Assembly (NCBI GenBank): GCA_043822785.1
Contig: JBDRBN010000026.1
Coordinates: 1 to 63,125 of the forward strand
Source: Pseudomonadota bacterium
GTDB lineage: Bacteria > UBA10199 > 2-02-FULL-44-16 > JAAZCA01
DNA: 63,125 nt
Direction: 5' to 3'
In this document: one piece after another, positions 4,679 to 24,588 of the stretch
Layout: each line of letters starts with the position of its first letter
Position numbering within the stretch: the stretch's first letter is position 1
Position numbers and translations under genes: made by a program
Notes under the pieces: generated by a model
What the model saw: the letters and a program-made list of their open reading frames with translations, nothing else
Databases searched by the model: none
Told to the model about the DNA's origin: nothing

Positions 4679-4705
4679 CACGGATGCGGAAATTACATTA
4701 TCGAT

Positions 4706-6250: not shown

Positions 6251-6262
6251 CAGTTCTCCGTT

Positions 6263-6368: not shown

Positions 6369-6374
6369 AAATCC

Positions 6375-7628: not shown

Positions 7629-8668
7629 GTAAACCTCTCATCAAACCACCTCTTCACTGCTGCATTTTTTCTATATAGATCCATCGTAAAGTTCGCATGA
7701 TTCGGCGCATAGCCGTTGCCGATTATCATCTCCACATCCATGCCCACCCCTTCTGCTCCCAAAGCCGCCTTTTGAAAATTCGTGGCCATGTTAAAGAAAT
7801 AGACCTTGCCTCCTTGGCGGCACGAAAGCACTGACGCAAGCTCAGTGCCTTCAACGTTGGCCGCGTTGATCACTAGATCGCACATCTTGCCCTTCGTTGT
7901 CTTCGCCACTTTATCCATGACCTCAGAAGGATGAAGAGCATTGGCGACAAAGCATTTGTCGGCAAGCCCCAGCTCCTTAAAACTCTCTACGCTCGACTCG
8001 CGCGTTGCAGAGGCGAGTATAGTGCAATCCTTACCCAGCTTCTCTCGTATGCTGGCAGCACAGAGCACACCTGATTTTCCCGTGCCTATGATATAAATGG
8101 TATCGCCCTTGTGTGCGAGTCGAAAGGCCTGGGGCGAGGCACCAGCCACATCCAAAAGCGCAAGGCATACGCCCAGCTCAATATCATCTGGAATCTTTGC
8201 CAAAACGCCTGAATCAAAAAGAATTGCCTTGCCCTGGATATCGATCTGCTCTGATTCGCGCACTGTTTTTATTTTCTCGACGATGAGCGGGGTGAGGGTA
8301 AGCGACACCAGCGTGCAGATTTTATCGCCCTTCTTTACATTTGCAGGGTTAGAATATTTTAGGCCCATATCTTCTACGGCGCCCAGAAGCATGCCGCCGG
8401 AGCCGGTCACGGGATTTTGCTGCTTGCCCATATGCTTAACATTATCCAGCACCTGTTTGGCAATGCCCTGCAGATCGTCGCCTGCTACGCCTTTCATCTG
8501 CCTAAAGGAGGCTGAGTCGATATTTAACGTGCTGACATCTATTAAGATTTCATTGTCGTAGATGGGCAGCGTATTATCCAGCTTGGTAGCTGCTTGGGGC
8601 AGGGCACCCTCAGGGTAGATTACCCTGTGACGGCCAAGCCTATCGCCACCCGCGCGACACTCAGACAC
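7625..8668 (-). CDS. kdd: L-erythro-3,5-diaminohexanoate dehydrogenase
   Basis: YDNEILIDVSTLNIDSASF and NPVTGSGGML blocks match what I recall of Kdd. Rossmann motif GTGKSG. Synteny with the kam genes. Confidence 0.75.
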   Translation of the reverse strand: MSECRAGGDRLGRHRVIYPEGALPQAATKLDNTLPIYDNEILIDVSTLNIDSASFRQMKGVAGDDLQGIAKQVLDNVKHMGKQQNPVTGSGGMLLGAVEDMGLKYSNPANVKKGDKICTLVSLTLTPLIVEKIKTVRESEQIDIQGKAILFDSGVLAKIPDDIELGVCLALLDVAGASPQAFRLAHKGDTIYIIGTGKSGVLCAASIREKLGKDCTILASATRESSVESFKELGLADKCFVANALHPSEVMDKVAKTTKGKMCDLVINAANVEGTELASVLSCRQGGKVYFFNMATNFQKAALGAEGVGMDVEMIIGNGYAPNHANFTMDLYRKNAAVKRWFDERFT

Positions 8669-8998: not shown

Positions 8999-9030
8999 GC
9001 GGAGGCTTCATCTGCCTTAAAATCGAATAG

Positions 9031-9049
9031 CTCGCAAGATGATTTTGTA
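9031..9049 (+). repeat. Left copy of a 19-bp perfect direct repeat flanking ATPase cassette 1
   Basis: ctcgcaagatgattttgta, identical to 10391-10409. Confidence 0.9.
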
Positions 9050-9053
9050 TCGA

Positions 9054-9097
9054 GTTATACGTTGAAATGTGGGATATTGCGTAAATCAACGTATAAC
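9054..9097. promoter_or_regulatory. 13-bp perfect inverted repeat (operator-like or hairpin) upstream of ATPase 1
   Basis: agttatacgttga, 18-nt spacer, tcaacgtataact. Confidence 0.5.
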
Positions 9098-9176
9098 TTA
9101 ACATATCTTACTTCTTGATTATTGGTGTGTTTTAAGTATAATTAAAATATAGCTAAATGTTTACTGAATTTTAATT

Positions 9177-10382
9177 ATGATTAAAAAATATATTAAACGA
9201 AATTACTATCTCACTAAGATCAAACCATTCCTCGACAAGGACATTATCAAGGTCATTGTGGGGCAACGCAGGGTTGGAAAGAGCTATATGCTCTTTCAGA
9301 TTATGGATATGATCAAAGAGAAGCACAATGCAGCTGAGATCATTTATATCAACAAAGAGCTGCATGAATTTGAGCACATTCAAAATCATAAAGACCTCAT
9401 AAACCACATAGAAAAAACTGCTCCCAAGAAAAAAGCAAAAACCTACCTCTTTATAGATGAAATTCAGGACATACAGAATTTTGAAAAGGCGCTAAGAAGC
9501 CTCAAAGCGACCGGCAAATACGACATCTATTGCACCGGCAGCAACGCGACTCTTCTCTCAGGTGAACTGGCAACCTATCTGAGCGGCCGTTATGTGGAAA
9601 TAAAAGTTCACAGTCTTTCCTATCTTGAATTCCTCACCTTTCACAAACTCAAAGAAACTGAAGAGTCTTTTCTGAAATACATTAAATACGGCGGTTTGCC
9701 ATATCTTAAGCACCTAGAGCTCACAGACGAAGTTGTCTATGATTACTTGCGAAACGTTAATAACACGATTCTCTTCAAAGACATCATCGCCCGTTTTAAT
9801 ATCAGGAATGTTTCCTTTCTTGAACAGCTCGTGGATTACCTTGCAGACAATGTCGGCAGCATTGTGTCGGCAAAGAAAATCAGCGATTTTCTAAAGTCTC
9901 AGCGTATTAATATTTCTCCGAATGTTGTTCTGGATTACCTATCTCATCTGTGCTCCACTTTCTTTATTCACAAGGTGCAAAGGACCGACATTCGAGGCAA
10001 AAAGATCTTTGAGATAAATGACAAATATTATTTTGAGGACCTGGGGCTTCGCCACTCGATAATCCGTTATAAACAGACAGATATTAACAAGGTGCTTGAA
10101 AACATCATATATAACCACTTGGCCATTGCTGGTTATGATGTGATGGTCGGCCAGTTAGGAAGCAAAGAAATCGATTTTGTGTGCGAAAAGGGCGGCGAAC
10201 GCACATACATTCAGGTTGCCTACGTGATAACTGATGAAAACCGTGAGAGAGAGTTTGGAAACCTACTCGCCATACCAGATAATTATAGAAAAATCGTCAT
10301 TTCAACGGATTCACTTATTAGCGACACGAGTTTCAAAGGCGTGGAGCATGTAAATCTCAGGAGTTTTATAGGTTCTTTATAG
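9177..10382 (+). CDS. AAA+ ATPase with DUF4143-like C-terminal domain (COG1373-type)
   Basis: Walker A GQRRVGKS. Walker B LFIDEIQ. C-terminal EIDFV block, with the downstream E-x-K degenerated to IQVA. Confidence 0.8.
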   Translation: MIKKYIKRNYYLTKIKPFLDKDIIKVIVGQRRVGKSYMLFQIMDMIKEKHNAAEIIYINKELHEFEHIQNHKDLINHIEKTAPKKKAKTYLFIDEIQDIQNFEKALRSLKATGKYDIYCTGSNATLLSGELATYLSGRYVEIKVHSLSYLEFLTFHKLKETEESFLKYIKYGGLPYLKHLELTDEVVYDYLRNVNNTILFKDIIARFNIRNVSFLEQLVDYLADNVGSIVSAKKISDFLKSQRINISPNVVLDYLSHLCSTFFIHKVQRTDIRGKKIFEINDKYYFEDLGLRHSIIRYKQTDINKVLENIIYNHLAIAGYDVMVGQLGSKEIDFVCEKGGERTYIQVAYVITDENREREFGNLLAIPDNYRKIVISTDSLISDTSFKGVEHVNLRSFIGSL

Positions 10383-10390
10383 GGCGATGT

Positions 10391-10409
10391 CTCGCAAGAT
10401 GATTTTGTA
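10391..10409 (+). repeat. Right copy of the 19-bp direct repeat flanking ATPase cassette 1
   Basis: ctcgcaagatgattttgta, beginning 8 nt after the ATPase stop. Confidence 0.9.
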
Positions 10410-10489
10410 ATACCGAACTTGCAAAATCGAGTCGGTTGACAGAAATAAGCCTAAAATGAGACACTATCTTTGAATTGAGGTGCATACAC

Positions 10490-10729
10490 ATGGGGCTGGC
10501 AAAATATAAGACATTTGAGGATGCAAGAAAGAAGGATCTTGAAGATATCATCAAAAATAGCGTCAGTGCTTCGCGCTCCCAACAAAAAGAAAAAACATCT
10601 TCTGCAGCCAAACCTTTTGAGGCAAGTCATTATCCTAAAGGCATCTATCGCTTCAAATCATGGGAAGAAGCCAGAAATTCAGATCTTGAGCATATGATAC
10701 GTCATTCTATCAGGAGAAAGAGCGCATGA
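10490..10729 (+). CDS. Small protein with an internal duplication; putative partner of the downstream nucleotidyltransferase
   Basis: ATG follows GAGG. KYKTFEDARKKDLEDIIKNS and RFKSWEEARNSDLEHMIRHS are a duplicated segment. The stop overlaps the next start (ATGA). Confidence 0.5.
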   Translation: MGLAKYKTFEDARKKDLEDIIKNSVSASRSQQKEKTSSAAKPFEASHYPKGIYRFKSWEEARNSDLEHMIRHSIRRKSA

Positions 10730-11196
10730 TTCGTCTAGAGCAACTTCTCGATGTCTGCCAAAGGCTCAATGAAAGCGGAGTAAGTTATGTCCTGATCGGA
10801 GGATGGGCTATTTTCCTGCACGGCTATGAGCGCGCTACTCGCGATATCGACATCCTTGTAGATGATTCAGAAGATAACATTTCAGCCTTGAAAAAGGCTC
10901 TTAATGACCTGCTTCCAGAGGCCTGTGCAGAGCTGCAGGCTAATGATATACGCCAGAATGTGGTTGTCAGGATGGCGGGCGAGAATATCGTGCTCGATCT
11001 GATTAGAAACGTTGGCGATATGGATTTTGCCCGTATGAAAACTCATATAGAAAAACAAAAAATTAATGACGTGCTTATACCCTTTGCAGACCTGCCTGCT
11101 ATGCTCGATCTCAAGGGTGGCGTTCGCGATGTGGACCAGCGTGACTATCTGTTTTTGAAAGGAAAGATGGAGTATCTGCAAAGAGGCAAGAAGTGA
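10726..11196 (+). CDS. Nucleotidyltransferase-fold protein (MNT/AbiEii-like)
   Basis: LIGGWAIFLHGYERATRDIDILV matches the GG-x-A...HG...T-x-D-x-D NTase signature. Confidence 0.6.
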   Translation: MIRLEQLLDVCQRLNESGVSYVLIGGWAIFLHGYERATRDIDILVDDSEDNISALKKALNDLLPEACAELQANDIRQNVVVRMAGENIVLDLIRNVGDMDFARMKTHIEKQKINDVLIPFADLPAMLDLKGGVRDVDQRDYLFLKGKMEYLQRGKK

Positions 11197-11349
11197 AACC
11201 CGCTCGCGACTCATTCAGGCACTTTTGTATCTTGGTGGAACGGTATTGAGTTGAAGTTCCAAAATTCAGATTTTTATATTATTTCAGATATAAAAATCAT
11301 GGGGTTGTGTGTCGAGAAACGTCCCTTTGTTTTTCTTTCTCATTTTGGT

Positions 11350-13164
11350 TCATAAAAATGGCATGAATCTTCTGTTCTGCGATGAGGCGTGGATTGCGAG
11401 CGCAAGCCAGTCATCATCTTCCGTGTAAATAACCTTGAGCCTAAAGAGCTGGCGCAGCACCCTGCGGAGCTCTTTTTCAGGAATGTCCCTAAATCTTTCG
11501 CGCATCTCCTTGAAGCTTCGGATAGAGTCGCAGAAGAGATATAGCTCACGTGACCACCCGTCTAGACGATGACAACTATAAGAAGATCTAAAATCATTAA
11601 TTTCTATAGTCTTATCGTGATCCAAATAAAAAAGTAGAGGCATGCCTTCGGAAAGAGATTCTTCATAAACGGAGCTCCATCTTTTAATGTGCTTCTCAAG
11701 CGGGTGTTCCTTTTCTACCCCATTTCTTCCTTTAAATTTCTTATGCCAGAGTGAAAGATTAGAATATTTAGATGGAACGAGGTTCCCAAGTACACCTGCC
11801 TCGTTGATAGAGTGAATATGATATTTTCGTTGTTGTTGATGAACTAAAGATTGTTCTTGCAATTCAAAGAGCGTACATGACGGTGGATGGTAGGAAAGGC
11901 AATATTCAATGTTATTGATGCTTCTTTCAATATCCTTCCGAGATTCCAATGGATAACCTAATATTATATTCGAGGCATCGTAGCGAATTCCAAGTTCTTC
12001 ACAATGTTTCATTGTCTGATAATTATCAATTACCCTCAAACCTTTATTCATTTTTTTCAGAAGCGAAGAAGCAAGCGCTTCTATCCCAATAGTAACTCCA
12101 TCCACTCCTGATTTCTTCATAATTGAAAGAGTATCTTTTGGAATTCCAGCGCGTATTTCACAAAACAATTTGTAGTCGAGATGATGCTTGGAAAGAAGTG
12201 TAAATATTTTTCGTGCGTACCGGAAATCAACAAACCGATCGACAATAAATACTCTGTAGGTGCTATATTTCCGGCACACCCTTTCAATTGATTGTGAAAC
12301 TACCTTCACAGGCTTTACTCTGTATTTTTTAAAATAATTCCGATCACTACAGAAAGCACAATTATGAATACATCCTCTGCTCATTTCTACAGGGATGAAT
12401 GGGGATATTTCGGTTCCAGCTAACAAAGGACTATTTTCAATAAATGCAAAATATGAATCATAGTCAGGATCACCCATTTGTTTCATACTTCTAAGCTCAG
12501 TGCATTTATTGACTTGTATCCTACCATCCCTACGGTAAATTAGTCCTGGAATCTGACTCTCACTATTTTCATTCCAATCATTAGAAATGTTTAATAGTTT
12601 AAGATAAGGCTGTTCTCCTTCACCATCAATACACCAATCAACAAAATCAAAATGACGAAGGAGTGATTTTCCAAGATTTCCGGAACTACATTTACCACCT
12701 AGAACGACCTTTGTATTTCGATTATCCCTTTTAATCCATTTGGATAGAACCAATGCTGTAAACAACTGTTGGTAATCAACAGTAATACCAATCAGAGAAT
12801 ATTTTTTCTTTTTCAGCTGGCAATAATATTTCCAAAGTGCTGTCTTAAATTCACCACGAACAACCCTTCCTACGGAGGGTGATAGTAATCGATCAACATA
12901 CTTAATAAATTTAATATTATCTCTGAAAAGAAGGGAACCACTGATAGCGTCACCAAGATATTTATCCTGAAAGACAATCTGATTATATAATTCTAATCCA
13001 AGAATCGAAGCAATTTCCAAATGGAGATGATGCGTTTCTATCGGATGCCCATGCTGATTTGCAAAAGCTGACAAACAACCAATTGCAAGCGATGGTCTCT
13101 GGTAGTCCGCCCACGGCGGTGATATTAAGAGTGCTCGTTTTTTTTCATGTAATAAATTGACCAT
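11350..13164 (-). CDS. B12-binding-domain radical SAM enzyme, paralog 1 (RiPP-maturase-like)
   Basis: SRGCIHNCAFC CxxxCxxC. N-terminal Rossmann/B12-like region (VVLGGKCSSG). C-terminal module ...LRRVLRQLFRLKVIYTEDDDWLALAIHASSQNRRFMPFL is shared with paralogs 2 and 3. Confidence 0.85.
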   Translation of the reverse strand: MVNLLHEKKRALLISPPWADYQRPSLAIGCLSAFANQHGHPIETHHLHLEIASILGLELYNQIVFQDKYLGDAISGSLLFRDNIKFIKYVDRLLSPSVGRVVRGEFKTALWKYYCQLKKKKYSLIGITVDYQQLFTALVLSKWIKRDNRNTKVVLGGKCSSGNLGKSLLRHFDFVDWCIDGEGEQPYLKLLNISNDWNENSESQIPGLIYRRDGRIQVNKCTELRSMKQMGDPDYDSYFAFIENSPLLAGTEISPFIPVEMSRGCIHNCAFCSDRNYFKKYRVKPVKVVSQSIERVCRKYSTYRVFIVDRFVDFRYARKIFTLLSKHHLDYKLFCEIRAGIPKDTLSIMKKSGVDGVTIGIEALASSLLKKMNKGLRVIDNYQTMKHCEELGIRYDASNIILGYPLESRKDIERSINNIEYCLSYHPPSCTLFELQEQSLVHQQQRKYHIHSINEAGVLGNLVPSKYSNLSLWHKKFKGRNGVEKEHPLEKHIKRWSSVYEESLSEGMPLLFYLDHDKTIEINDFRSSYSCHRLDGWSRELYLFCDSIRSFKEMRERFRDIPEKELRRVLRQLFRLKVIYTEDDDWLALAIHASSQNRRFMPFL

Positions 13165-13281
13165 GTTCCATATTAATCAATTTGTAGATCATATATGACA
13201 TATTCTAATTTGATTTGATTGACACTTTAGGAAGGAATACCGTAGGTGCCCCGCGCTTTCTCTCGAAATTGAGTACGATTG

Positions 13282-13382
13282 ATCTTACCCCAAGAACTAG
13301 CACACGACAAAGTTGAGTCCCTTTGGAGTTATCCCACCGAAGGGACTCAACATCAAACCATCTTAGTTTCCTGGGGTAAGAT
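13282..13382 (-). promoter_or_regulatory. Nested stem-loop between the precursor-like ORF P1 and radical SAM paralog 1
   Basis: Outer 11-bp arms atcttacccca (13282-13292) and tggggtaagat (13372-13382). Inner 12-bp arms gttgagtccctt (13312-13323) and aagggactcaac (13340-13351). Confidence 0.6.
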
Positions 13383-13386
13383 TACA

Positions 13387-13542
13387 TTATTTTTTTCTTG
13401 CGAGACCGCTACCGCCAATTTCCTTTATCTTCTGAATGCCACCAATTTCCTTTATCTTCCGAACATTTAATGCGGATTTTGGAGTTCTAGCAGTGTAGCT
13501 TTTGGTTCTTGCCGAACTACTGGTCTTCTTTATCTGTGCCAT
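13387..13542 (-). CDS. Small ultra-basic peptide P1 (51 aa), candidate precursor peptide
   Basis: Hand translation: MAQIKKTSSSARTKSYTARTPKSALNVRKIKEIGGIQKIKEIGGSGLARKK. GAGGAG SD lies 7 nt upstream. Same strand as, and upstream of, radical SAM 1. Not in the ORF track. Confidence 0.6.
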   Translation of the reverse strand: MAQIKKTSSSARTKSYTARTPKSALNVRKIKEIGGIQKIKEIGGSGLARKK

Positions 13543-13606
13543 AGATAATCTCCTCTCTTATTGTCTTTAATTTACTTCTTTATTAAGAATACATTGAAAG
13601 AATAGT

Positions 13607-14701
13607 GTGTTGCAAGTTATAAACAAAGATACTATGAATACGCTTAATATAATCCTGCAGCGTTGGCAAGAGTATCTACGCAAAAAAAATAAGAAAGATT
13701 ACATAACTGCTTATATTCATATTCCATTCTGTTCCAGAAGATGCCGCTATTGTGATTTTCCCTCACGAGTAATAAAAAGTTCGAATGACATCGATGGATA
13801 TCTAGACTTTCTTCAGAAAGAAATGTCTTTGTTAGCGCCCCTTTTTAAGGGGCACTCTATTTCCGGTCTATATATCGGGGGTGGCTCGCCTTCAATATTG
13901 GAACTTCATCAGATGAAACGATTGTTTAAAATGATCGGAAGTTGTTTTGAGTTAGATCTTGATGATCAAAATATGTTCACGATCGAAATTAATCCGATTC
14001 ACTTAAATGAAGATAAAATTGACTTAATATCCTCGTCGATCGTTAACCGCGTAAGTTTGGGAATTCAATCACTTGATTCTAATGTTTTAGCAATAGAAGG
14101 AAGAGAATGCTTACCAATGGATAGAATGTTTTATTTACTCAGCCATTTGATGACTAAGATGAGGCATAAAGGTTGTAGGATCAACACTGATCTCATATTC
14201 GGATTGAATCAACAATCATTGAAGATCTTTCGTAATGACTTTTCGCGACTTGTTCAATGGGATATTCCTCGCATTACAATTTATCCTTGCAGACGAAATT
14301 ATGATAATGGTTGGAACCAGGCATTTAAGAGAAGAGTTGTAGCAACTGTGAAATCTATTCATGAAAGCTTTCCCAACTATGATTTAATTCAATCAATGGG
14401 TCATTTTAAGGGAATTAACCATTTTGAACCCGAGTACAATTTCATTAATAAAAACTATAATCACTGCTATAAAAAGAGATACCAGGATTTTCCCTTTATT
14501 CATAATAGCAATATCGGATTTGGTTATTATGCAGATTCCTTTATTCATCCAGGACGATGCTACTACCGGAGAACTAGAAGGGAATACATTATATTGCATG
14601 ATAAAGAATCGGGAATTGTTAATCCATGGCTAGACAAGTATTTTATTAATGCCGAGATGTGTAGAAAAGCAAAAATCAGCGCTGATAATATCCCCTATTG
14701 A
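13607..14701 (+). CDS. HemN-like (class C) radical SAM enzyme
   Basis: YIHIPFCSRRCRYCDF and LYIGGGSPS motifs of the HemN/coproporphyrinogen-oxidase-like family. Divergent from the P1/radical SAM 1 pair. Confidence 0.8.
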   Translation: MLQVINKDTMNTLNIILQRWQEYLRKKNKKDYITAYIHIPFCSRRCRYCDFPSRVIKSSNDIDGYLDFLQKEMSLLAPLFKGHSISGLYIGGGSPSILELHQMKRLFKMIGSCFELDLDDQNMFTIEINPIHLNEDKIDLISSSIVNRVSLGIQSLDSNVLAIEGRECLPMDRMFYLLSHLMTKMRHKGCRINTDLIFGLNQQSLKIFRNDFSRLVQWDIPRITIYPCRRNYDNGWNQAFKRRVVATVKSIHESFPNYDLIQSMGHFKGINHFEPEYNFINKNYNHCYKKRYQDFPFIHNSNIGFGYYADSFIHPGRCYYRRTRREYIILHDKESGIVNPWLDKYFINAEMCRKAKISADNIPY

Positions 14702-14989
14702 TTCTATTCACTATAAATCTGCAAATATTGCTACTCATATGGTTACGACCTGTAGTGCCCCCGGTAAGTCGAGACAATAATTTGGCTGAATGTAGCAGGG
14801 GTTTCGAGTCATCAGACAGCTTGTCTCCGTATGTGTGATCTCGACAAGTTGAGGGATACCATATCCTTCATTGCATCGAGATCGTCGTTCATATCGAATC
14901 CTCGTTTGCCGTTTTTCTTCTCACTCATGCAGCGGCCTTCATGGTGTTCAAGAACGCCTCCTAAACGATAGTGTCCGACACCTTTTTTT

Positions 14990-15160
14990 AAGAGTTTTGA
15001 TGAAATCAAAAAGCGCCTTCCTGATGTGAGCGATAAGGAGCTTAAGAGAACGCTCAATAAGCTTTTCAAGCTCAAGGTCATGTTTAAGGAAGGAAACGAC
15101 TGGCTCTCACTCGCAATCCACGCCTCACCAGAAAACCGCCGGCATATGCCGTTTCTATAA
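14990..15160 (+). pseudogene. Orphan 3' fragment (last 56 codons) of a radical SAM paralog
   Basis: Translates to KSFDEIKKRLPDVSDKELKRTLNKLFKLKVMFKEGNDWLSLAIHASPENRRHMPFL*. Nearly identical at DNA level to 17287-17457. No upstream gene body. Confidence 0.85.
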
Positions 15161-15295
15161 TAACATGCCCATGCCCCTGCCCCTGCCCGTTATCGAGAAT
15201 GTAGGACAAGCGAAATCCTGATCCCTTTTGCATTGAAATTTACGCTATTCCACGATATACAGCATGTCACTCACTTTCGATGGAAGGAGCCATTT

Positions 15296-15442
15296 ATGCC
15301 AAGGGGTCAAAAAAAATTTTTAAAACCTATACTCAAAATATCTGAAAAACCAAGAGGCCAAGGTAACAAACCACCAAGTAAACAAGGAAAAAAACCAGCT
15401 CCTGGTGGTGGAAAGAAAAGACGAGTCTCGCATCTTGTCTAA
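15296..15442 (+). CDS. Small ultra-basic peptide P2a (48 aa), candidate precursor peptide
   Basis: MPRGQKKFLKPILKISEKPRGQGNKPPSKQGKKPAPGGGKKRRVSHLV. GGAAGGAG SD upstream. The track shows a longer ORF from 15233. Confidence 0.6.
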   Translation: MPRGQKKFLKPILKISEKPRGQGNKPPSKQGKKPAPGGGKKRRVSHLV

Positions 15443-15505
15443 AAAAGCTCGCAGGACACTCAATCAACTCTTCAAGCGTCATTCACGCAATGAAAGGGGT
15501 CATTT

Positions 15506-15649
15506 ATGGTAAGAAAAAGAAATACATATTCAGCATCTACAGTCAAAAGCGTATCAAAAAAAACGGGTCGCACACGAGTTAAAGTGAAAACAAAAGGCTT
15601 ACGCACCCCTGTTGGTGTTAAGAAAAAACGAGTCGCGTATCCTGTCTAA
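15506..15649 (+). CDS. Small ultra-basic peptide P2b (47 aa), candidate precursor peptide
   Basis: Hand translation: MVRKRNTYSASTVKSVSKKTGRTRVKVKTKGLRTPVGVKKKRVAYPV. GAAAGGGG SD upstream. The stop is 11 nt before the radical SAM 2 start. Not in the ORF track. Confidence 0.6.
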   Translation: MVRKRNTYSASTVKSVSKKTGRTRVKVKTKGLRTPVGVKKKRVAYPV

Positions 15650-15660
15650 AAAGAACTCGA

Positions 15661-17388
15661 ATGAGCGCTCCCAAGTTTCTTCTTGTATCTCTACCCTGGG
15701 CCACATATCAGGGGCCCAGCCTTCCTATAGGCACGCTCGCAGCATACGCCCAAAACAAAGGATTCGACGTTGAGGCAAAACACCTTCATCTAAAAGCTGC
15801 GGCTCTTTTTGGACTAGAAATTTACGATCACTATTCCTATCACACTTTTGTTGGAGATGCCATTTCTGCCGCAATACTCTTTCCGGAAAAAGAAAAAGAG
15901 CTCGTTGAATATTGCGAATGCTGCGTCAAAGGGGCAAAGAGCCATCTCATCGATCTCAAGCATGCACTAAAAAGAATCTATGAAGAAGTGGATTGGGCTA
16001 AATACGATGTGGTAGGCTTCACCACTAGCTACCGTCAGATCTTTACCTCGCTCATCATAGCCAAATGGATAAAGCGCGACTATCCAGAAGTTAGAATTAT
16101 CCTGGGAGGACGCTTAGTGAGCGGAGCACAGGGTCATTCGATAATAAAACTCTTTCCACAGATCGATTATTGCGTGGATGGAGAAGGCGAGATAGCACTT
16201 GTATCTCTTTTAGATGAGATGAGGCATGCAAATGCCGATTTTGAAGCCAAGGTGCCTGGACTCATATACCGCAAGGAAGAAGAAATTTATGCAAATCCTA
16301 GGCAGCATCTCGAAAGCCTCGAGGACATGCCTGATCCGGATTACAGACATTACTATAAAACAATTGATAAACATCCATCTCTAAAGAATAGCGCATTGCC
16401 ACTCTATCTCCCGATAGAGGCAAGCCGTGGATGCAACTATAGGTGTGCCTTTTGTTCCCACAATATATTCTATGGCAACAACCGCAATCGACCGCCAAAG
16501 GAAGTTGCATCCTCAATCCAGCGTTTGACCGACCTCTATCGAATATCCTCTATTATTTTTATGGATCTGACCGTCCAGCCCGAGCATTCTGAAAAGCTGT
16601 TTGCGCACATTGCTGCGCAAAAACGCGATTACAAAATCTTCTGCGAAATGCGCGCCAATATATCCAAGGAAGTGCTCTTGATGATGAAGCAAGCTGGCTT
16701 AAGTGCGGTGCAGGTCGGGATAGAGGCGCTAGACACTCGCCTTCTTAAAAAAATAAATAAAGGAACTAGGCTTATAGATAATCTTCAAATCATGAAATTC
16801 TGTGAGGAGCTGGGAATTGGTTTAGATTATAATCTCATCTTGGGCTTTCCTACTGAAACCCAGACAGATATCGAGCGGTCCATTCAAGCCATCGAGTATG
16901 CCTCATCCTTTCCGCCTCCGTTAACGCTTATAAACTTCACACTCATTGATGGCTCTCCTGTTTTTTGCTCGCCACAGAAGTATGGCATCTATAAAAATGA
17001 CGATTGCTCAGAACTCTCATCCAGATTACCACGACATATCACTGCTGAAATGAAGCTGCTTTATAAAACTTATAAATCCAAGTATAAACCACGAGACTAT
17101 TCTAGACTGAACAGAAGGGTAGAGCGCTGGAGAAAACTATATAAGGAGGCAAGGAAAGAAGGCTGCCCTCTTTTTTACTATGTGGACTTCAATAGCTTTC
17201 TAAATATCGAAGATTACAGAACGGGTGTGGATTCCATCACCCTTGATAGCTGGGCACGCGAACTTTACCTCTTCTGTGACTCTATAAAGAGTTTTGACGA
17301 AATCAAAAGACGATTTCCTGATGTGAGCGATAAGGAGCTTAAGAGAACGCTCAATAAGCTTTTCAAGCTCAAGGTCATGTTTAAGTAA
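15661..17388 (+). CDS. B12-binding-domain radical SAM enzyme, paralog 2; C-terminal tail cut off by a TAA
   Basis: SRGCNYRCAFC motif. Ends ...KLKVMFK*. The 22 in-frame codons after the stop (17389-17457) encode GNDWLSLAIHASPENRRHMPFL. Confidence 0.85.
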   Translation: MSAPKFLLVSLPWATYQGPSLPIGTLAAYAQNKGFDVEAKHLHLKAAALFGLEIYDHYSYHTFVGDAISAAILFPEKEKELVEYCECCVKGAKSHLIDLKHALKRIYEEVDWAKYDVVGFTTSYRQIFTSLIIAKWIKRDYPEVRIILGGRLVSGAQGHSIIKLFPQIDYCVDGEGEIALVSLLDEMRHANADFEAKVPGLIYRKEEEIYANPRQHLESLEDMPDPDYRHYYKTIDKHPSLKNSALPLYLPIEASRGCNYRCAFCSHNIFYGNNRNRPPKEVASSIQRLTDLYRISSIIFMDLTVQPEHSEKLFAHIAAQKRDYKIFCEMRANISKEVLLMMKQAGLSAVQVGIEALDTRLLKKINKGTRLIDNLQIMKFCEELGIGLDYNLILGFPTETQTDIERSIQAIEYASSFPPPLTLINFTLIDGSPVFCSPQKYGIYKNDDCSELSSRLPRHITAEMKLLYKTYKSKYKPRDYSRLNRRVERWRKLYKEARKEGCPLFYYVDFNSFLNIEDYRTGVDSITLDSWARELYLFCDSIKSFDEIKRRFPDVSDKELKRTLNKLFKLKVMFK

Positions 17389-17582
17389 GGAAACGACTGG
17401 CTCTCACTCGCAATCCACGCCTCACCAGAAAACCGCCGGCATATGCCGTTTCTATAATAACATGCCCATGCCCCTGCCCCGTTACCGAATATATCTATAT
17501 TTTACAAGAAGTTAATTGATTCAAAATTCCTGACAACACTTTTAGACTTGCTAACGTTTATAACGTTAAGTATACTAACGTT

Positions 17583-18917
17583 ATGGACGTTAAGACAATA
17601 AACGAGCTGCTTTCTAGCGGAGAAATAGACAGAGAAGACCTCTGGCCACGTATCGTTGAAATGGAATCAAAAGCAGCCCAATTCAGGTTTGAATTCGGTT
17701 TGGATGAGCTGCCAAAAGAACCTGGCATTATAACTATCAGAGGACCACGCCAATATGGAAAAAGCACCTGGCTAGAAATGAATCTGAGAATATCTATTCA
17801 AGACTTTGGAAAGGGATCGGCATTTTATATCAATGGTGACGAGCTGGCATCCGCTGATGAGCTTGCAGAACAAATGAAAGTTTTGTGCAGAGCTTATTCT
17901 CGAGATGCAAAAATCAAAAGGTTGTTCATCGATGAGATAACCGCGGTAAAGAATTGGGAAAAAGCCATCAAAAAGGTGGTCGATCAGGGGCTTTTTAAAG
18001 ATATCCTCATAATTACGACAGGGTCAAAGGCTTCTGATCTGCGCCATGGCACAGAGCGTTTACCTGGGAGAAAAGGTCGTCTCAAGAAAAGCGAATATAT
18101 TTTTCTGCCAATCTCTTATCGTGAATTCAATTATCAAACCAGAAATGAGCTCGGCAATAAAGCTTGGATAGCCTACCTTCTGACTGGCGGTTCCCCAGTG
18201 GCATGCAACGATATTTATCAATTCGAAAAACTACCTGAATATTTTATTCAAATGACCCGCGATTGGGTATTGGGAGAGACGGTCTCGTCCGGCAGAAGCC
18301 GTATGCTGTTGACGCAGGTATTGCACACAATAATGAAATACGGAGGCCAGCCAGTTGGTTTTGCAAAACTCGCACGAGAATCAGGCCTTGCAAACAACAC
18401 AGTTGCTAGCGGTTATATAGAACAATTATCGGACCTGCTTTCGTTGCTTCCATCTTGGCCGTGGGATAGTCAGAGGGACATCTTTCTATTAAGAAAACCC
18501 TGCAAATTTCACTTCATCAATCTTGCAGCTGCCTTGTCTTTTCACCCTTCAATGCCGCGCCATATTCACGAATATGAAGCTTTGGATTCGCATGTGCAAT
18601 CATACTTGCTTGAATGGCTTGTTGCCCAAGAATTATGGCGACGCGCTGTTCTTGCACAAGTTGAAAATCCTGAAGTCATTGGTTTTTGGGCATCGAAGGA
18701 GCATGAAATTGATTTTGTAACGCATGACAGACAAATGATTGAAGTGAAACGTGGACGCGCGGGTCCGCTGGATTTTGGCTGGTTTAACAAAACTTTTCCA
18801 AATGAGAAGCTCACAGTCATTTGTGACACTCCCTTTGCAAGCGATCAGTTAATTGGCATCACAATTGACAAATTTCTTATGAACACACCTACTACACTCT
18901 ATTTTAATGAAGAGTAA
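17583..18917 (+). CDS. AAA+ ATPase with DUF4143/PD-(D/E)xK-like C-terminal domain (COG1373-type)
   Basis: Walker A GPRQYGKST. Walker B LFIDEIT. C-terminal EIDFV...IEVK nuclease-like motif. Confidence 0.8.
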   Translation: MDVKTINELLSSGEIDREDLWPRIVEMESKAAQFRFEFGLDELPKEPGIITIRGPRQYGKSTWLEMNLRISIQDFGKGSAFYINGDELASADELAEQMKVLCRAYSRDAKIKRLFIDEITAVKNWEKAIKKVVDQGLFKDILIITTGSKASDLRHGTERLPGRKGRLKKSEYIFLPISYREFNYQTRNELGNKAWIAYLLTGGSPVACNDIYQFEKLPEYFIQMTRDWVLGETVSSGRSRMLLTQVLHTIMKYGGQPVGFAKLARESGLANNTVASGYIEQLSDLLSLLPSWPWDSQRDIFLLRKPCKFHFINLAAALSFHPSMPRHIHEYEALDSHVQSYLLEWLVAQELWRRAVLAQVENPEVIGFWASKEHEIDFVTHDRQMIEVKRGRAGPLDFGWFNKTFPNEKLTVICDTPFASDQLIGITIDKFLMNTPTTLYFNEE

Positions 18918-18926
18918 TGAACATAA

Positions 18927-18978
18927 TCCCATCCATCCGCGCCTCGCCCGAAAACCGCCGGCATATGCCGTTTCTTTA
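18927..18978 (+). repeat. Orphan copy (D) of the radical SAM 3' tail
   Basis: ccatccgcgcctcgcccgaaaaccgccggcatatgccgtttctttaa. The 26-nt core gaaaaccgccggcatatgccgtttct is identical to 17428-17453. Confidence 0.85.
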
Positions 18979-18995
18979 AAAAAAGTTCAACTAAG

Positions 18996-20530
18996 AGAGG
19001 CTGTTGATAAAGTAGGGGGTTTAGGTCATTAAAAATCGGGCGATTTTTTGAAAAAAGGCTGAAATTTCGGTTTGCCCCCTGTATCGCCTCCTTCTGTTTT
19101 CCCTTTCCCCGGCTCTCGGGGGCATGGCTCTTAGGGAAGGGGTACTGTTACGCAACCGCCGCCATCGGAACAAGTCTCACCGGCGGAGCATTGATTAGGA
19201 TATTTATCAACCGCTGAATATTTGCAGCCAGCGCCGTGAAGAAACACTGAAACCTGAATTTTGCCAGACCACGATACCGGCACCGCCTCATCCCAAACCC
19301 GTTTTTCAATTGTCCGTTCTTTCGCTCGATCGCTCCGCGCTTTTTCATGAGCTCCTTGTATGTTGCAGTCTCGTTAAACGCTGCCTTACGCTTCCTATAC
19401 ATAAAACTCGGTGATGCCAGCACAGTAATGCCGCCCCCGCCATGTCACATAACTTGCCGACGTCTCTTCACCTCCAGGACATCGCATGCTCGGCGCTCCA
19501 CTCTGGCCCTGGATCAATTCAGACATATCATTCGCAAAAACGCTGCTCTCGCTCCTCTGTTTCAGAGGCGTCACCACCTTCGTGCCTTTTCCTTCCAGAT
19601 ACATACCCAAGCCTTCATCCGCATCTCCCACCACTGATGCGGGCTTGATCCCAGCACACGAAAGCTCCGCCATCATCTCACCCACTCCCCACGTGTCATG
19701 CCGATTCCCAAGCATCCCTTCGATCGCCGTGATGAATCCATCCCCGCTCTTCTCCAGATACTCCAACAGCCGACGTGCTGCCTGTACCAGCTCCACCAAA
19801 TGATTCTTCTCCTCCCCGCGCTTTGCAATCTCAAACACAACTCCTAACTCCAAATTCTTTGCCAACTGATTCCCCACTCCCCCTGGAAGCCTCTCCGCGC
19901 TTCGCAACACCCCCTTAATCCCCATCCGCAATAACTCGATCGTGTTCGGTATCGCGATATCCGCGATCACATGCGTGGTGTCGATCACTCCAGTCTCCCC
20001 AGCTTTTATTAGCCCAGCCTGGATAAGCGCCTCTCGAAATCTATCAAAACATACCGCCGTCTGATCATTCTCCACCAGCATCCCCCGAAACTTGCACAAC
20101 ACCGTGTGATCGAATCCTCCGTCATCCATCGGCAATCCCAATGCGTACTTCGTAGCCAAATTAAACCGGATCTGCCGCTCCATCTCCCGATCCGACAACC
20201 GATACCGCTGCTGCAATATCAGAGAACATGCAATCAACGATGGCGGGATCGCTCCTCTCCCTCGGTCCGGACTCTAAGCCCATGCAAAATCCTCGTCGCT
20301 GATCAGAGGCCGAACCACTCGCCTGAAATGCCACTCGAAACTCTCCTCGTCGATCAAATGCTCGATCCATTCCGTACCCCAAAAACTCCCTTGCCCACCA
20401 CCGCGCTTTAGCATTTTTTACCCCCGTCGATTTTATGACGCATCCTCAAATCACCTGCTGATATGCATAAATACTACATCTCCACCTATTTTCATACCTA
20501 ATATGCATCGAGAGAAAATCAACAGCCTCT
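18996..20530 (-). mobile_element. Decayed IS5/IS1182-like insertion sequence
   Basis: 13-bp terminal inverted repeats agaggctgttgat (18996-19008) and atcaacagcctct (20518-20530). They enclose a disrupted DDE transposase. Confidence 0.75.
19148..20411 (-). pseudogene. DDE transposase (DUF772 N-terminal type) with an in-frame TAG and a frameshift
   Basis: N-terminus MLKRGGGQGSFWGTEWIEHLIDEESFEWHFRRVVRPLISDEDFAWA*SPDRGRGAIPPSL... continues into ORF 19395-20237. The C-terminal domain (ERKNGQLKNGFGMRRCRYRGL) is in another frame (19148-19423). Confidence 0.75.
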
Positions 20531-20727
20531 AAGACGTGTCAAATTTTTAACTTCCAAAAGGCGCTATTTTTCATTATGGTAACAGGTATGATTTTAAATG
20601 TTATTATGTTATCAAGATGTTATGGTATAGTGTTTTTTTGCACAGAACTTGCATAAATTCAGTGCTCGAACTGATTGGGCACTTATAACTGAAACAAGAG
20701 GAATAATAGAAAAATGAGGAGGTTGTT

Positions 20728-20826
20728 ATGAAAAAGACAGGAAGTATCACCGCAAAGAAAGCTGGTTTTAAGAGTAAGCTCGGCCGTCGCGCTGTTCTTC
20801 CTGCTAAAAGTACGCGGTCAAGATAG
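20728..20826 (+). CDS. Small ultra-basic peptide P3 (32 aa), candidate precursor peptide
   Basis: Hand translation: MKKTGSITAKKAGFKSKLGRRAVLPAKSTRSR. GAGGAGG SD lies 6 nt upstream. The stop is 29 nt before the radical SAM 3 start. Not in the ORF track. Confidence 0.6.
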   Translation: MKKTGSITAKKAGFKSKLGRRAVLPAKSTRSR

Positions 20827-20855
20827 ATCTGAAATGGGTCGATTAGAAGATTAAT

Positions 20856-22673
20856 ATGAATGCTAACAGGGCTGCCATCATATCACTCCCCTGGGCTGAA
20901 TATCGTGCGCCATCAGTGGCAATCGGCGCACTTGCATCCTTTGCAAGAAGATATGGGCATAAAGTCGATGCGCTTCAGCTCCACCTTCCTTTTGCTGCTC
21001 TCTTTGGTATAGATCGATACGATAAAATTCTAGATGATGTAGCAGACGAGTCATCAAAAGGCCATGTTGGAGAGGCGCTGTGCGCAGCTCTTTTGTATAA
21101 AGACGAAAAACATAAGCTTTTGGAATATATTGGAAGATCTATAGATTATCCCCAGAAAAATCTTCGTTCACTCGAGCGCTCGCTTACTCAAATATATAAA
21201 ACCCATGATTGGAGCCACTACAGGCTGATAGGGTTTTCAACAACTTTGGGCCAGCTCTTTGCTTCACTTCTGTTTGCCTCATGGATAAAGAAGGACCATC
21301 CCAACATCCGCATAGTCCTTGGAGGAGATCCAGTAAGGGGTGCGCTAGGCGCATCGATATTGAAAACAAATCCACACATCGATTGGTGCGTTGACGGGGA
21401 AGGGGAGCTGGCCTTCACAGCCCTGCTTAATGGACTAAAGCAGAAAACTGGAACCTTTGAGACAGAGGTTCCGGGTCTTATATATCGCGATGGTGATAGG
21501 ATTTGTCATAATGAGAAAAAACAGATCCCTGATCTTTCAAATCTTCCAGATCCAGATTTTGATGATTATTATAATACTCTTAACGAGCTTGATAGCCTAG
21601 CTAACAAGGAACTCTATGCGTTTTTGCCGATAGAGACAAGCAGAGGGTGCCTGTTCAGGTGTGCCTTTTGCGGAGATCGAAGCGTATGGCAGGGTTATCG
21701 CATGCGCAAACCAGAGGCTGTAGCTAAGCTTGTTAAGAGATTAACCAAAAAAAATCGAGTCGACAGGATTATCTTCACTGCACTTATGATGTCGCCTGAC
21801 TATCTTAAAACGTTATCAAGATTGCTATCCAAACATCGCAGAGATTATAAAATCGTCACTCAATTGAGAGCCGACACCCCTAAAGAGGTTCTCATCGAGT
21901 TAAAGAAAGCAGGTGCATGCGAAGCGCAGATTGGTATAGAAGCGCTTGATTCAAAGCTTCTTAAAAAGATGAATAAAGGCACGACAACTATTCAGAATCT
22001 TGCTGCCCTCAAATATTGTGCAGAAATCGGCTTAGATGCAGGGCAGAGCAATTTAATGATAAATTTTCCCACAGAAACAGGGGCAGATTTAGATAGGACA
22101 ATATCGACAATCGATTTCGCAATACAATATAGCACGCCTAACGTAGCTTGGTTTATTCTTAAAATTGGATCACTTGTTGCAGAACAGCCACAAAAATATG
22201 GGGTTACATCTATTAATCATAATACGTACTTTTATGAATATTTACCAACAAGGATAGCGCATGAAATCAAGTTGCAATATCTCTCGTTCAAATCCAGGAA
22301 CATGACAAAGCAACATCACGAATTTTTGAATAAAATGAAGAAGTGGAAGAAGAGCTATGAAGAAGCTAAAAAGGCAGGCCGCTATTTCCTTTCATATACC
22401 GACTGTAAAGATTTTTTACGAATTGAAGACTTCAGAGAAGGTTCCAGTTCAGTAACACTCGAAGGCTGGATAAGAGATTTATATCTCTATTGCGATAAGA
22501 TAAGAAAGCTGGATGAGATTCAAAGGCAATTTTCAGAAATCGATTCAAAGGAACTAAAGCGGACTCTTCAAGAACTCTATAAGCTCAAGGTCATGTTCAA
22601 GGAGGGCAATGACTGGCTCTCGCTTGCCATCCATGCATCACCTGAAAACCGCCGGCATATGCCGTTTCTTTAA
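20856..22673 (+). CDS. B12-binding-domain radical SAM enzyme, paralog 3 (full-length tail)
   Basis: SRGCLFRCAFC motif. IVLGGDPVRG B12-like region. C-terminus ...ELKRTLQELYKLKVMFKEGNDWLSLAIHASPENRRHMPFL. Confidence 0.85.
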   Translation: MNANRAAIISLPWAEYRAPSVAIGALASFARRYGHKVDALQLHLPFAALFGIDRYDKILDDVADESSKGHVGEALCAALLYKDEKHKLLEYIGRSIDYPQKNLRSLERSLTQIYKTHDWSHYRLIGFSTTLGQLFASLLFASWIKKDHPNIRIVLGGDPVRGALGASILKTNPHIDWCVDGEGELAFTALLNGLKQKTGTFETEVPGLIYRDGDRICHNEKKQIPDLSNLPDPDFDDYYNTLNELDSLANKELYAFLPIETSRGCLFRCAFCGDRSVWQGYRMRKPEAVAKLVKRLTKKNRVDRIIFTALMMSPDYLKTLSRLLSKHRRDYKIVTQLRADTPKEVLIELKKAGACEAQIGIEALDSKLLKKMNKGTTTIQNLAALKYCAEIGLDAGQSNLMINFPTETGADLDRTISTIDFAIQYSTPNVAWFILKIGSLVAEQPQKYGVTSINHNTYFYEYLPTRIAHEIKLQYLSFKSRNMTKQHHEFLNKMKKWKKSYEEAKKAGRYFLSYTDCKDFLRIEDFREGSSSVTLEGWIRDLYLYCDKIRKLDEIQRQFSEIDSKELKRTLQELYKLKVMFKEGNDWLSLAIHASPENRRHMPFL

Positions 22674-22704
22674 TAACATGCCCGTTTCTGTGCCCGATGC
22701 AGTA

Positions 22705-23835: not shown

Positions 23836-24045
23836 AGACTCTATTTATTATAATTCAGTCAATTAACTGACTATATTTTATCAAATACAGTCAATTAATC
23901 AATACATATCTGCTATCCTTGCCTCGCCGCAATCAATCTCTACATGTTTTCTTTGAAATATATCATATAATATCAATATGTTATATGATGTATATATGAT
24001 CGGATAACATAAATTGAGAAAATGATTATTTTAACTGACACCTGG

Positions 24046-24084
24046 GTCGTCATTTATCATGATAAATGACGACTGAAGTTTTTT
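24046..24084 (+). other. Perfect 13-bp-arm palindrome followed by a T6 run
   Basis: gtcgtcatttatc-at-gataaatgacgac then tgaagtttttt. There is no plus-strand gene upstream for it to terminate. It sits just inside the orphan tail E. Confidence 0.5.
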
Positions 24085-24114
24085 GGAAAAACTGTGGGGC
24101 CGCAAGTTTTGTTG

Positions 24115-24178
24115 ATGACTGGCTCTCGCTTGCCATCCACGCATCGCCCTGAACCAGCCAGCATATGCCGTTTCTATG
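24115..24178 (+). repeat. Orphan copy (E) of the radical SAM 3' tail
   Basis: gactggctctcgcttgccatccacgcatcgccctgaaccagccagcatatgccgtttctatgaa. The first 23 nt are identical to the tail of paralog 3, which ends at 22673. Confidence 0.85.
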
Positions 24179-24242
24179 AAAATGAAAAAGGCCCGCAAGA
24201 AATGATATTCCCCGTGGGCCATGTTTCATATTGTAGCCGAAA

Positions 24243-24461
24243 TTACTTCTGTGTTGCTGTCGGCTCTTCCAATTTCTTCTGCTCCTCATCGATACACTTT
24301 TTCAAAGCATCGCCAGCCAGATTCTTTGCCTTGCAAACTTCCTCTGCTTTCTTCTCAGTAGCTGTCTTTGTGGCTGCGGCTGTCTTTGTTTCCTCTGCCT
24401 TTAGGCCTGCTGCGACCAGCACGAAAGCTAGTGCTACCATTACGCCAATTAGTTTCTTCAT
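24243..24461 (-). CDS. Small secreted Lys/Glu/Ala-rich protein
   Basis: Strong SD (AAAGGAGGTG). Signal peptide MKKLIGVMVALAFVLVAAGLKA. Two Cys residues. Confidence 0.65.
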   Translation of the reverse strand: MKKLIGVMVALAFVLVAAGLKAEETKTAAATKTATEKKAEEVCKAKNLAGDALKKCIDEEQKKLEEPTATQK

Positions 24462-24588
24462 ATTATCACCTCCTTTCGGGTGGTCTTCTATAGCCCTCTC
24501 ATGAGGTGAAGATTAAACGAAAATGATTTTTTCTTAATTTTAAAGATACTTGACGGCAATACCCTCTTATATGCTATACGCGCTGGCC

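Follow-up and report, generated by a model that had tools for sequence, protein, structure and literature searches.

Polycationic small ORFs upstream of a clade of B12 radical SAM genes: candidate substrates of C-methyltransferases in a Pseudomonadota contig

Contig JBDRBN010000026.1 of a Pseudomonadota bacterium (63,125 nucleotides, all of which is hereafter called the window) carries four unannotated small open reading frames (ORFs), P1, P2a, P2b and P3, which encode short and strongly basic peptides and precede three genes of cobalamin (B12)-dependent radical S-adenosylmethionine (SAM) enzymes, rSAM1, rSAM2 and rSAM3 (Table 1). What these peptides are, and what the neighbouring enzymes do with them, is the question raised by this locus. 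A first-pass annotation had read them as precursors of the RiPP type (ribosomally synthesized peptides that are modified post-translationally), with a conserved C-terminus acting as a follower-type recognition sequence or as a conserved modified core. The substrate role was retained here as the best reading, while the conserved C-terminal follower or core was not supported in the form proposed. With modest confidence, we favor the view that the small ORFs encode substrates of the adjacent, clade-specific B12 radical SAM C-methyltransferases and represent a RiPP-like polycationic class without recognisable leader, protease or exporter.

Association of the small ORFs with one enzyme clade

All four ORFs were recovered, with translations exactly as first quoted. 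Each displayed an ATG start located 6-9 nt past a strong Shine-Dalgarno (SD) site (GGAAGGAG, GAAAGGGG, GAGGAGG and AGAGGAG) and each was followed on the same strand by a gene of ~600 codons belonging to TIGR03975, the NCBIfam family 'RiPP maturation radical SAM C-methyltransferase' (curated cutoff 281.85 bits). A scan of intergenic DNA on both strands of the whole window, retaining ORFs with ATG and SD site, at least 30 aa, K+R of at least 25 % and D+E of at most 8 %, was passed by these four ORFs only.

Table 1. Positions of the features discussed, numbered along the forward strand of the window
Feature	Position	Strand	Description
P1	13387-13542	-	Polycationic small ORF, 51 aa, net +12; SD AGAGGAG; KIKEIGG twice
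P2a	15296-15442	+	Polycationic small ORF, 48 aa, net +14
P2b	15506-15649	+	Polycationic small ORF, 47 aa, net +16; stop 11 nt before rSAM2
P3	20728-20826	+	Polycationic small ORF, 32 aa, net +11; stop 29 nt before rSAM3
rSAM1	11350-13164	-	604 aa; TIGR03975, 295.6 bits; Radical_SAM domain; CxxxCxxC; downstream of P1
rSAM2	15661-17388 (ORF)	+	In-frame homology to 17457; TIGR03975, 333.3 bits; possible pseudogene
rSAM3	20856-22673	+	605 aa, intact; TIGR03975, 308.9 bits
P1-rSAM1 stem-loop	13286-13378	-	Inner perfect 12-bp stem 13312-13351; -45.4 kcal/mol, z = -6.45
Orphan rSAM 3'-end copy	14990-15183	+	97 % identical to 17287-17480; without the stop mutation; ORF 15026-15160
rSAM 3' remnant in P2a-P2b spacer	15453-15481	+	29 nt, 79 % identical, RTLNKLFK helix; P = 0.002 by shuffling
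HemN-like gene	13607-14701	+	Radical SAM, class C type; divergent from P1
Lysine fermentation set	2808-8668	-	kdd-like dehydrogenase, lysine 2,3-aminomutase, D-lysine 5,6-aminomutase alpha and B12-binding subunits
Three AAA_14/DUF4143 ATPase genes	9177-10382, 17583-18917, 22705-23835	-	Matches to PDC-S01, a candidate defence family in PADLOC
Copies of the last 45-70 nt of the rSAM gene	15096, 17393, 18915, 22609, 24115		Repeats around two of the AAA_14 genes
Palindrome CGGCATATGCCG	15140-15151, 17437-17448, 18959-18970, 22653-22664		Perfect; four copies versus 0.01 expected
DUF772-type transposase gene	19395-20237	-	GC-rich patch (0.53), between second AAA_14 gene and P3-rSAM3
RHS-repeat protein gene	27482-34054	-	2190 aa; DUF6531 and RHS repeats

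The three enzymes all exceeded the TIGR03975 cutoff and covered nearly the whole of the 606-position model. They displayed the motif CxxxCxxC, invariant in their clade (C265, C269, C272), and Pfam Radical_SAM matches, together with the structural model of rSAM3, indicated the presence of the TIM-barrel core. The Pfam B12-binding model was matched by rSAM2 (34.1; gathering threshold 32.1), remained below threshold in rSAM3 (25.5) and gave no match in rSAM1; the cobalamin-binding Rossmann domain was recognised by superposition of the full-length model. The AlphaFold model of rSAM3 (predicted local distance difference test score 91.6) comprised a B12 Rossmann domain, a radical SAM barrel and a C-terminal winged-helix domain, and superposed on OxsB, TokK, CysS and TsrM at E 1e-15 to 1e-18, and also on MgmA; B12 radical SAM enzymes were matched at the sequence level as well. 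The C-terminal domain (~residues 510-590) was composed of three strands, three helices and a two-strand wing, which is the topology of a RiPP recognition element. With this domain alone, Foldseek returned generic winged-helix matches, the best TM-score (0.58, E = 0.09) being to the RiPP enzyme TigE, where the match presumably falls on the peptide-recognition element. As judged from the model, the domain is suggestive, at most, of a peptide-docking recognition element. A defence-system search with the enzymes gave weak generic radical SAM matches to PDC-M51A only.

The enzymes form a small clade of ~50 clusters at 90 % identity, 40-63 % identical to rSAM2, the next relatives being at most 34 % identical. 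When 1.84 billion representative proteins were searched exhaustively with a profile, only ~21-23 of them reached 590 bits or more, and the wider family comprised 8977 members at E <= 1e-30. Contigs were fetched for the clade and for distant TIGR03975 relatives (178 loci, numbered L001 onwards), and the 400-nt stretch upstream of every gene was screened by one fixed ORF rule. A cationic ORF with ATG and SD site was found within this distance for 19 of the 31 distinct close-clade genes and for none of the 49 distant genes, while the same criteria were satisfied by chance in 0.8 % of random 415-nt windows from the fetched loci. The pairing of peptide and radical SAM gene is beyond chance and restricted to the clade, and the coupling between small ORFs and B12 radical SAM genes that had been noticed in the window was thereby borne out. 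The distance from peptide stop to enzyme start was mostly 0-37 nt, and in L176 the two genes overlapped by 11 nt. Those clade genes without such an ORF that were viewed individually were mostly situated close behind another radical SAM gene of the same operon; the exceptions, with an intergenic gap yet no cationic ORF, were L001 10001, L085 and L171. The distant TIGR03975 relatives were accompanied by conventional candidate precursors with Cys, leader and core.

Composition and constraint of the peptides

The collected family comprised 23 distinct peptides of 32-69 aa with net charges of +11 to +22. Their composition was dominated by K (19 %) and R (14 %), followed by T, S, A and V (~8 % each), with D+E at 3 % and essentially no Cys, Trp or His. 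In loci whose GC content spanned 43-59 %, K+R amounted to 27-45 % while the K/(K+R) ratio took values between 0.2 and 0.93. Such an interchange of K and R at a maintained K+R content indicates that charge was selected and that A-rich DNA is not the cause; an artefact of nucleotide composition was ruled out by the constancy of K+R over this GC range.

Sequence similarity beyond composition could be demonstrated only in two subgroups, L006/L087/L007 and L002_13254/L165/L088, which kept N-terminal or central blocks such as KKPxVxVRxGLVGRP. Within the former, the proportion of synonymous differences (pS) was saturated at 0.75-0.85 and that of nonsynonymous differences (pN) was 0.33-0.46, so that these ORFs are translated under constraint. 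The first-pass annotation had stated that its reading would fail if the ORFs were not conserved as coding sequence in related loci. The peptide class was conserved, with coding constraint in this one subgroup; the window's own peptides displayed no homologues. For the four of them, no NCBIfam or Pfam family was found at E <= 1, no match better than E = 0.04 came from tblastn over the complete set of fetched loci, and a query of 5.8 billion proteins with only P2b returned no candidate. The family as a whole was hardly more accessible to similarity: Pfam and NCBIfam scans of the 23 peptides yielded chance-level matches only (e.g. bL37, E = 0.3), global alignment was uninformative and a profile of all 23 retrieved only two proteins, both already known.

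Duplications were encountered at several levels. The repeated KIKEIGG heptad of P1 proved to be part of a 25-nt direct repeat (92 % identity, 27-nt spacing) corresponding to a nine-codon tandem duplication; the peptide of L088 displayed an internal duplication of ~27 residues. The PRGQ repeat reported for P2a is present, but is only four residues long.

P2a and P2b had been described as a tandem duplication with diverged upstream parts, and this was confirmed. The period was ~207 nt and the final 45 nt, through the stop codon, were 84 % identical without gaps; the near-identical strings first pointed out lie at 15413-15445 and 15620-15652 and are the sole two copies in the window, with 0 expected by chance. 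In an alignment of the full units, identity amounted to 69 % in the upstream part with SD site and ATG, to 48 % in the body and to 76 % in the 3' block. The coding indels (3 and 6 nt) kept the frame.

The comparison of synonymous and nonsynonymous changes was less favorable to a conserved C-terminus. All seven nucleotide differences of the 45-nt 3' block were nonsynonymous (G to V twice, R to K, S to A, H to Y and L to P), and over the whole pair pS was 0.36 and pN 0.48, which is not the mark of purifying selection. BLASTP gave no alignment of P2a with P2b and their shuffle-controlled z was 2.0. The exact C-terminal pattern was absent from all 178 fetched loci, and its supposed echo in P3 (GRRAVLPA) was not significant, P3 being outside the 22 best of 253 peptide pairs in a shuffle-controlled comparison reaching down to z = 2.0. 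The shared terminus is an identity at the DNA level, and the nonsynonymous differences favor recent duplication or gene conversion over purifying selection; on these sequences, either event explains the P2a/P2b C-terminus better than a selected recognition sequence or core would. Over the whole family, basic clusters near the C-terminus and aromatic residues in the tail amounted only to a statistical tendency: [KR]3 clusters occurred in the last 12 residues of 12 of the 23 peptides against 5.5 expected (P = 0.003), and 11 of the 23 aromatic residues present were situated in the last eight positions (P = 0.0006). This tendency leaves room for a C-terminal element of some kind.

The surroundings of the P2 unit are in keeping with such a duplication and bear possible signs of decay. 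The enzyme gene rSAM2 displayed an in-frame TAA at 17386-17388, where the orphan 3'-end copy reads GAA at 15089-15091. The stop removes the last 23 residues, conserved across the clade; rSAM1 and rSAM3 are intact. Either recent pseudogenisation or an assembly error would account for it. Direct repeats of 194 nt, both of them copies of the rSAM 3' end (the orphan copy and 17287-17480), bracket the unit formed by P2a, P2b and rSAM2. The 29-nt remnant between P2a and P2b, which was also matched by blastn against the rSAM 3' ends of L001, fits a decayed array of [peptide-rSAM] units. Given the truncated rSAM2 and the relaxed divergence of P2a and P2b, the P2 module of the window may be decaying.

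Such decay is the starting point of one rival explanation, in which frames happened to stay open in the A-rich, untranslated remains of a decayed tandem rSAM array and the ORFs have no role in this genome. The P2 region is indeed A-rich (AT skew +0.19) and open in several frames, rSAM2 is truncated amid gene remnants, pN is not below pS for P2a and P2b, and the window peptides lack homologues. Chance frames would hardly produce the enrichment of 19/31 versus 0/49 versus 0.8 % under criteria that include ATG and SD site, nor the same peptide class in loci of 55-59 % GC, nor coding constraint in an orthologue subgroup; moreover, several related ORFs were called independently by gene callers, and P1 and P3 precede intact enzymes. 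This explanation is considered most improbable.

A structured 5' untranslated region had been named as another outcome that would overturn the peptide reading. No Rfam match was found at E <= 1 over positions 9000-25000 and folding of the P2 region was no better than that of shuffled sequence (z = +0.78), which ruled out an RNA element. Scans for promoters and terminators gave counts equal to those of shuffled sequence. In the 222-nt spacer between P1 and rSAM1, a strong stem-loop was found that none of 200 shuffles equalled. Hairpins behind the precursor gene are common in bacteriocin operons; attenuation, partial termination or processing behind the peptide gene are possible roles of the predicted structure.

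This hairpin also enters a second rival explanation, according to which the small ORFs are regulatory upstream ORFs, for instance sites of ribosome stalling on Lys and Arg codons that tunes the radical SAM gene, the peptide itself being functionless. Runs of AAA and AAG codons rich in Lys can slow ribosomes, the ORFs stand immediately upstream of the enzyme genes on the same strand, a strong hairpin follows P1 and lysine fermentation genes adjoin. Selection would then be expected on codons or tRNAs, and the interchange of K and R at kept charge argues for selection on the peptide. No terminator-like structure was found between P2b or P3 and the enzyme gene. Lengths of 32-69 aa and amino-acid constraint in one subgroup are atypical of attenuator leaders, and the tandem (P2a/P2b) and internal (P1, L088) duplications fit evolution at the level of a product better. 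A regulatory role is thus regarded as highly unlikely.

Companion genes and the surrounding island

Related loci were variable in their companion genes. GNAT acetyltransferase genes were found in L002-L004, L165, L166 and L175, M29 aminopeptidase genes in L001, L002, L170 and L177, and an S9 peptidase gene in L172; up to seven paralogous radical SAM genes were present per cluster. At the other extreme, L173 and L174 consisted of two genes only, located between miaA and lolA. No cluster combined a dedicated leader protease with an exporter.

Locus L172 displayed one clade enzyme, the S9 peptidase gene, a dense set of radical SAM genes and two paralogous precursor-like genes of 68/70 aa (5626-5829 and 5941-6150, both on the minus strand). 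Their products start with a basic N-terminal part, KKPVGGLVARAAP, resembling RKPLVKVRGGLVGRP of L006, which is followed by a conserved core, NYDFCPQPSPGIGGRTFTR; the core identical in both precursors is GGPRAEGNYDFCPQPSPGIGGRTFTR. From its gene content L172 looks like an uncharacterised conventional RiPP cluster, and it would link the polycationic peptide class to conventional RiPPs.

Two further observations concern more distant architectures. In L178, a 70-aa ORF (7520-7732, plus strand) joins a polycationic head of 25 residues, MKRRTTKRKTFRRKTLKKKTAKKK, to a helical tail and lies downstream of a borderline-clade radical SAM array, adjoining an ATP-binding cassette (ABC) transporter gene. 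Five profile matches (P0136, P0140, P0143, P0203 and P0213) were 1497-2331 aa long with 4-6 separate rSAM-profile matches each, and appear to be fused multi-domain B12 radical SAM enzymes.

In the window, the peptide and enzyme genes occupied a low-GC island (0.35-0.44 versus ~0.48-0.50 outside), flanked on one side by lysine-fermentation genes (kamA, kamD, kamE and a kdd-like dehydrogenase gene) and on the other by a two-component system followed by the RHS protein. The latter gene marks the right border of the variable region, and its orthologue borders the island in L001. The same lysine-fermentation neighbours were found beside the radical SAM clusters of L001, L002, L166, L170 and L175. 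Beside Lys-rich peptides and B12-dependent enzymes this neighbourhood is striking. A functional link of the Lys-rich peptides to kamA, kamDE and kdd was considered and set aside: synteny shared by related genomes is more likely, as other clade members are found in unrelated contexts. The HemN-like gene, situated inside the island, scored far below every equivalog cutoff, aligned over its first ~230 residues only and was not found in related loci, so that it is a doubtful member of the system and was discarded as a core component.

Window positions 9424-13159 (L005) were 100 % identical to the 3.9-kb contig JAHIYT010000019.1, which is binned in a metagenome-assembled genome labelled 'Patescibacteria group bacterium'. 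This contig is perhaps misbinned, since the 63-kb surroundings hold lysine fermentation and RHS genes. The transposase gene, with its GC-rich patch, is further evidence of a mosaic island.

Two of the three AAA_14 genes were located between copies of the 3' end of the radical SAM gene. The same layout was encountered in the unrelated contig L168/L169 (L168 8307-19290), where unit boundaries were marked by six rSAM 3'-end copies and four 3'-end copies of the upstream fadB-like gene. The layout looks like serial cassette insertion with duplication of the target 3' end, or like decay of a tandem array. The palindrome encodes the R-H-M-P that is conserved in the enzyme tail; it lies within the 3'-end segment that is repeated and could be a recombination site.

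These observations invite a more daring proposal in which the pairs are not antibiotic clusters. They would be self-contained two-gene modules for an intracellular, leaderless C-methylated polycation binding nucleic acid or ribosomes, which travel in cassette form through defence-type islands alongside PDC-S01 (AAA_14/DUF4143) ATPases and insert at the palindromic 3' end of resident radical SAM genes. The product would be a stress or anti-phage effector whose sequence is free to vary as only its charge matters. This proposal is distinctly unlikely in our estimation.

Proposed modification and comparison with known systems

If the peptides are substrates, the following course of events may be envisaged. 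The four small ORFs would be translated and each [peptide-rSAM] pair would form one module, co-transcribed and with tightly coupled translation. Using its [4Fe-4S]/SAM site and methylcobalamin, the enzyme would methylate unactivated side-chain carbons of an unstructured, strongly cationic peptide of 32-69 residues, possibly docked on its C-terminal winged-helix domain. PoyB/PoyC and MpcB carry out this type of chemistry on their own peptides. C-methylation would be expected to yield a polycation of greater hydrophobicity and protease resistance. Considering the lack of leader protease and exporter and the existence of two-gene loci, it may act inside the cell or leave it without a dedicated export system. 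In related clusters, the GNAT acetyltransferase and the M29 aminopeptidase could tailor or trim the peptide.

Several results weigh against this scheme. Only eight of 253 peptide pairs reached z > 3 in a shuffle-controlled comparison, with almost no common sequence beyond composition; reduced-alphabet k-mer enrichment revealed no family-wide motif (best k-mers in 3-6 of 24 peptides), and the window's own peptides were without homologues in protein, profile and tblastn searches. Neither a leader protease or exporter, nor a leader/core boundary or cleavage motif, was seen in the window island or in the two-gene loci. The C-terminal domain of rSAM3 gave no structural match at E <= 0.001 (best E = 0.03) and no Pfam PqqD match. 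The enzymes are basic (isoelectric point ~8.5-9.5), which is of no obvious help for binding a polycation; complementarity between acidic enzyme and basic peptide was ruled out, and since the distant relatives that lack such peptides are basic too, this property is not specific to the clade. In addition, rSAM2 is truncated, and in the closest relative, L001, the flanking genes are ~80 % identical at the DNA level, yet the rSAM2 orthologue has no cationic ORF upstream.

Part of the same evidence would suit a third rival, in which the peptides are real small basic proteins that accompany the radical SAM enzyme as accessory or scaffold subunits, or as polycations binding nucleic acid or ribosomes, while the enzyme modifies something else. 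Their composition is like that of small ribosomal proteins (with only marginal matches, such as bL37 at E = 0.3), their partners are basic, no protease or exporter is found, the two-gene context of L173 between miaA and lolA is of a housekeeping kind, and the sequences are too variable for classical leader recognition. An obligatory subunit is, however, expected to be as conserved as its enzyme, and here the enzymes are ~40 % identical while the peptides are near random beyond composition; many clade enzymes also lack a peptide gene of their own. TIGR03975 is, furthermore, a family of peptide-modifying enzymes whose characterised members act on an adjacent peptide (PMC11285071). A non-substrate partner is therefore held to be unlikely, and substrates of the adjacent enzymes remain the preferred interpretation of the small ORFs. 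B12 radical SAM enzymes are known to produce ribosomal peptides with heavy C-methylation, namely polytheonamides and clavusporins (PMC11285071, PMC10849626), and comparison with these and related systems is instructive.

Proteusins of the polytheonamide type (PoyA, PoyB, PoyC) also display an enzyme gene beside a ribosomal peptide gene and several paralogous methyltransferases per cluster. Their precursors combine a hydrophobic core with a long leader of the nitrile-hydratase-like or Nif11 type, in contrast to the window-class peptides of 32-69 aa and +11 to +22; the nitrile hydratase leader peptide (NHLP) and Nif11 leader models were matched by none of the four window peptides and gave chance-level matches only with the 23 collected ones. 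PoyB and PoyC are, we assume, members of TIGR03975. Multiple methylations of unactivated side-chain carbons, as expected here, are found in polytheonamides (PMC11285071). The motif of PoyC is Cx7Cx2C (PMC11285071) as opposed to CxxxCxxC in the window enzymes, and genes for an epimerase, dehydratase, N-methyltransferase or protease are not present here.

Clavusporins of Streptomyces (MpcA, MpcB and the DUF5825 protein MpcC) offer another parallel: there, heavy beta-C-methylation is introduced into a ribosomal peptide of 39 aa by a B12 radical SAM enzyme, and the product, which carries Lys and Arg charges, acts as a cationic surfactant (PMC10849626). The clavusporin precursor is, however, built of a leader, a hydrophobic core (Val, Ile, Thr, Pro) and an acidic follower, whereas K+R make up 27-45 % of the peptides described here. 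Its cluster includes a major facilitator superfamily (MFS) transporter, an S9 peptidase and the obligatory DUF5825 partner; neither a DUF5825 protein nor a transporter is present here, and the extra domain is fused to the C-terminus of the enzyme. MpcB displays Cx7Cx2C and the system is restricted to Actinobacteria.

The bottromycin precursor displays a follower arrangement, with its recognition sequence at the C-terminus. To our knowledge, no other RiPP class has B12 radical SAM C-methyltransferases that work on a follower-type precursor. A C-terminal follower is also the arrangement suggested by the first-pass annotation. The B12 radical SAM methyltransferases of bottromycin are BotRMT1-3 (PMC11285071). 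The window lacks YcaO, amidohydrolase and P450 genes as well as an N-terminal core of eight residues. A bottromycin-type follower RiPP was rejected, considering the absence of the C-terminal pattern from the 178 loci, the nonsynonymous differences of the P2 block and the lack of a YcaO-type gene. From polytheonamides, clavusporins and bottromycin alike, the present class departs in the type of precursor, in its canonical CxxxCxxC motif and in the lack of DUF5825, NHLP and YcaO components and of genes for export or cleavage.

Finally, the B12 radical SAM enzymes Mmp10 and MgmA/QCMT (acting on Arg and Gln, respectively, of methyl-coenzyme M reductase) and the radical SAM enzyme RimO (acting on ribosomal protein S12) modify side chains of a folded or basic protein inside the cell without leader, protease or export, as could be the case here. 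MgmA and RimO were among the structural or sequence matches of the window enzymes, but similarity to enzymes of this type was far lower than to TIGR03975, and their substrates are large conserved proteins encoded elsewhere, not an adjacent and fast-evolving small ORF.

No curated family, and no paper found by full-text literature searching, describes a pairing of polycationic peptide and radical SAM gene. The recurrence of this pairing within a rare enzyme clade of other bacteria suggests that ribosomal peptides of a kind not yet described are modified by these enzymes. This whole class of small genes escapes gene callers and curated family libraries, and its members can be found by composition and position, not by similarity. 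If the peptides are substrates, they would add a third kind to the heavily C-methylated ribosomal peptides, which so far comprise polytheonamides and clavusporins, and would be the first polycationic ones; as a two-gene system, the proposal is directly testable in E. coli. The enzymes would then accept almost any basic unstructured sequence, making them useful for the production of protease-resistant cationic peptides, and the leader/core rule of recognition by RiPP enzymes would be challenged.

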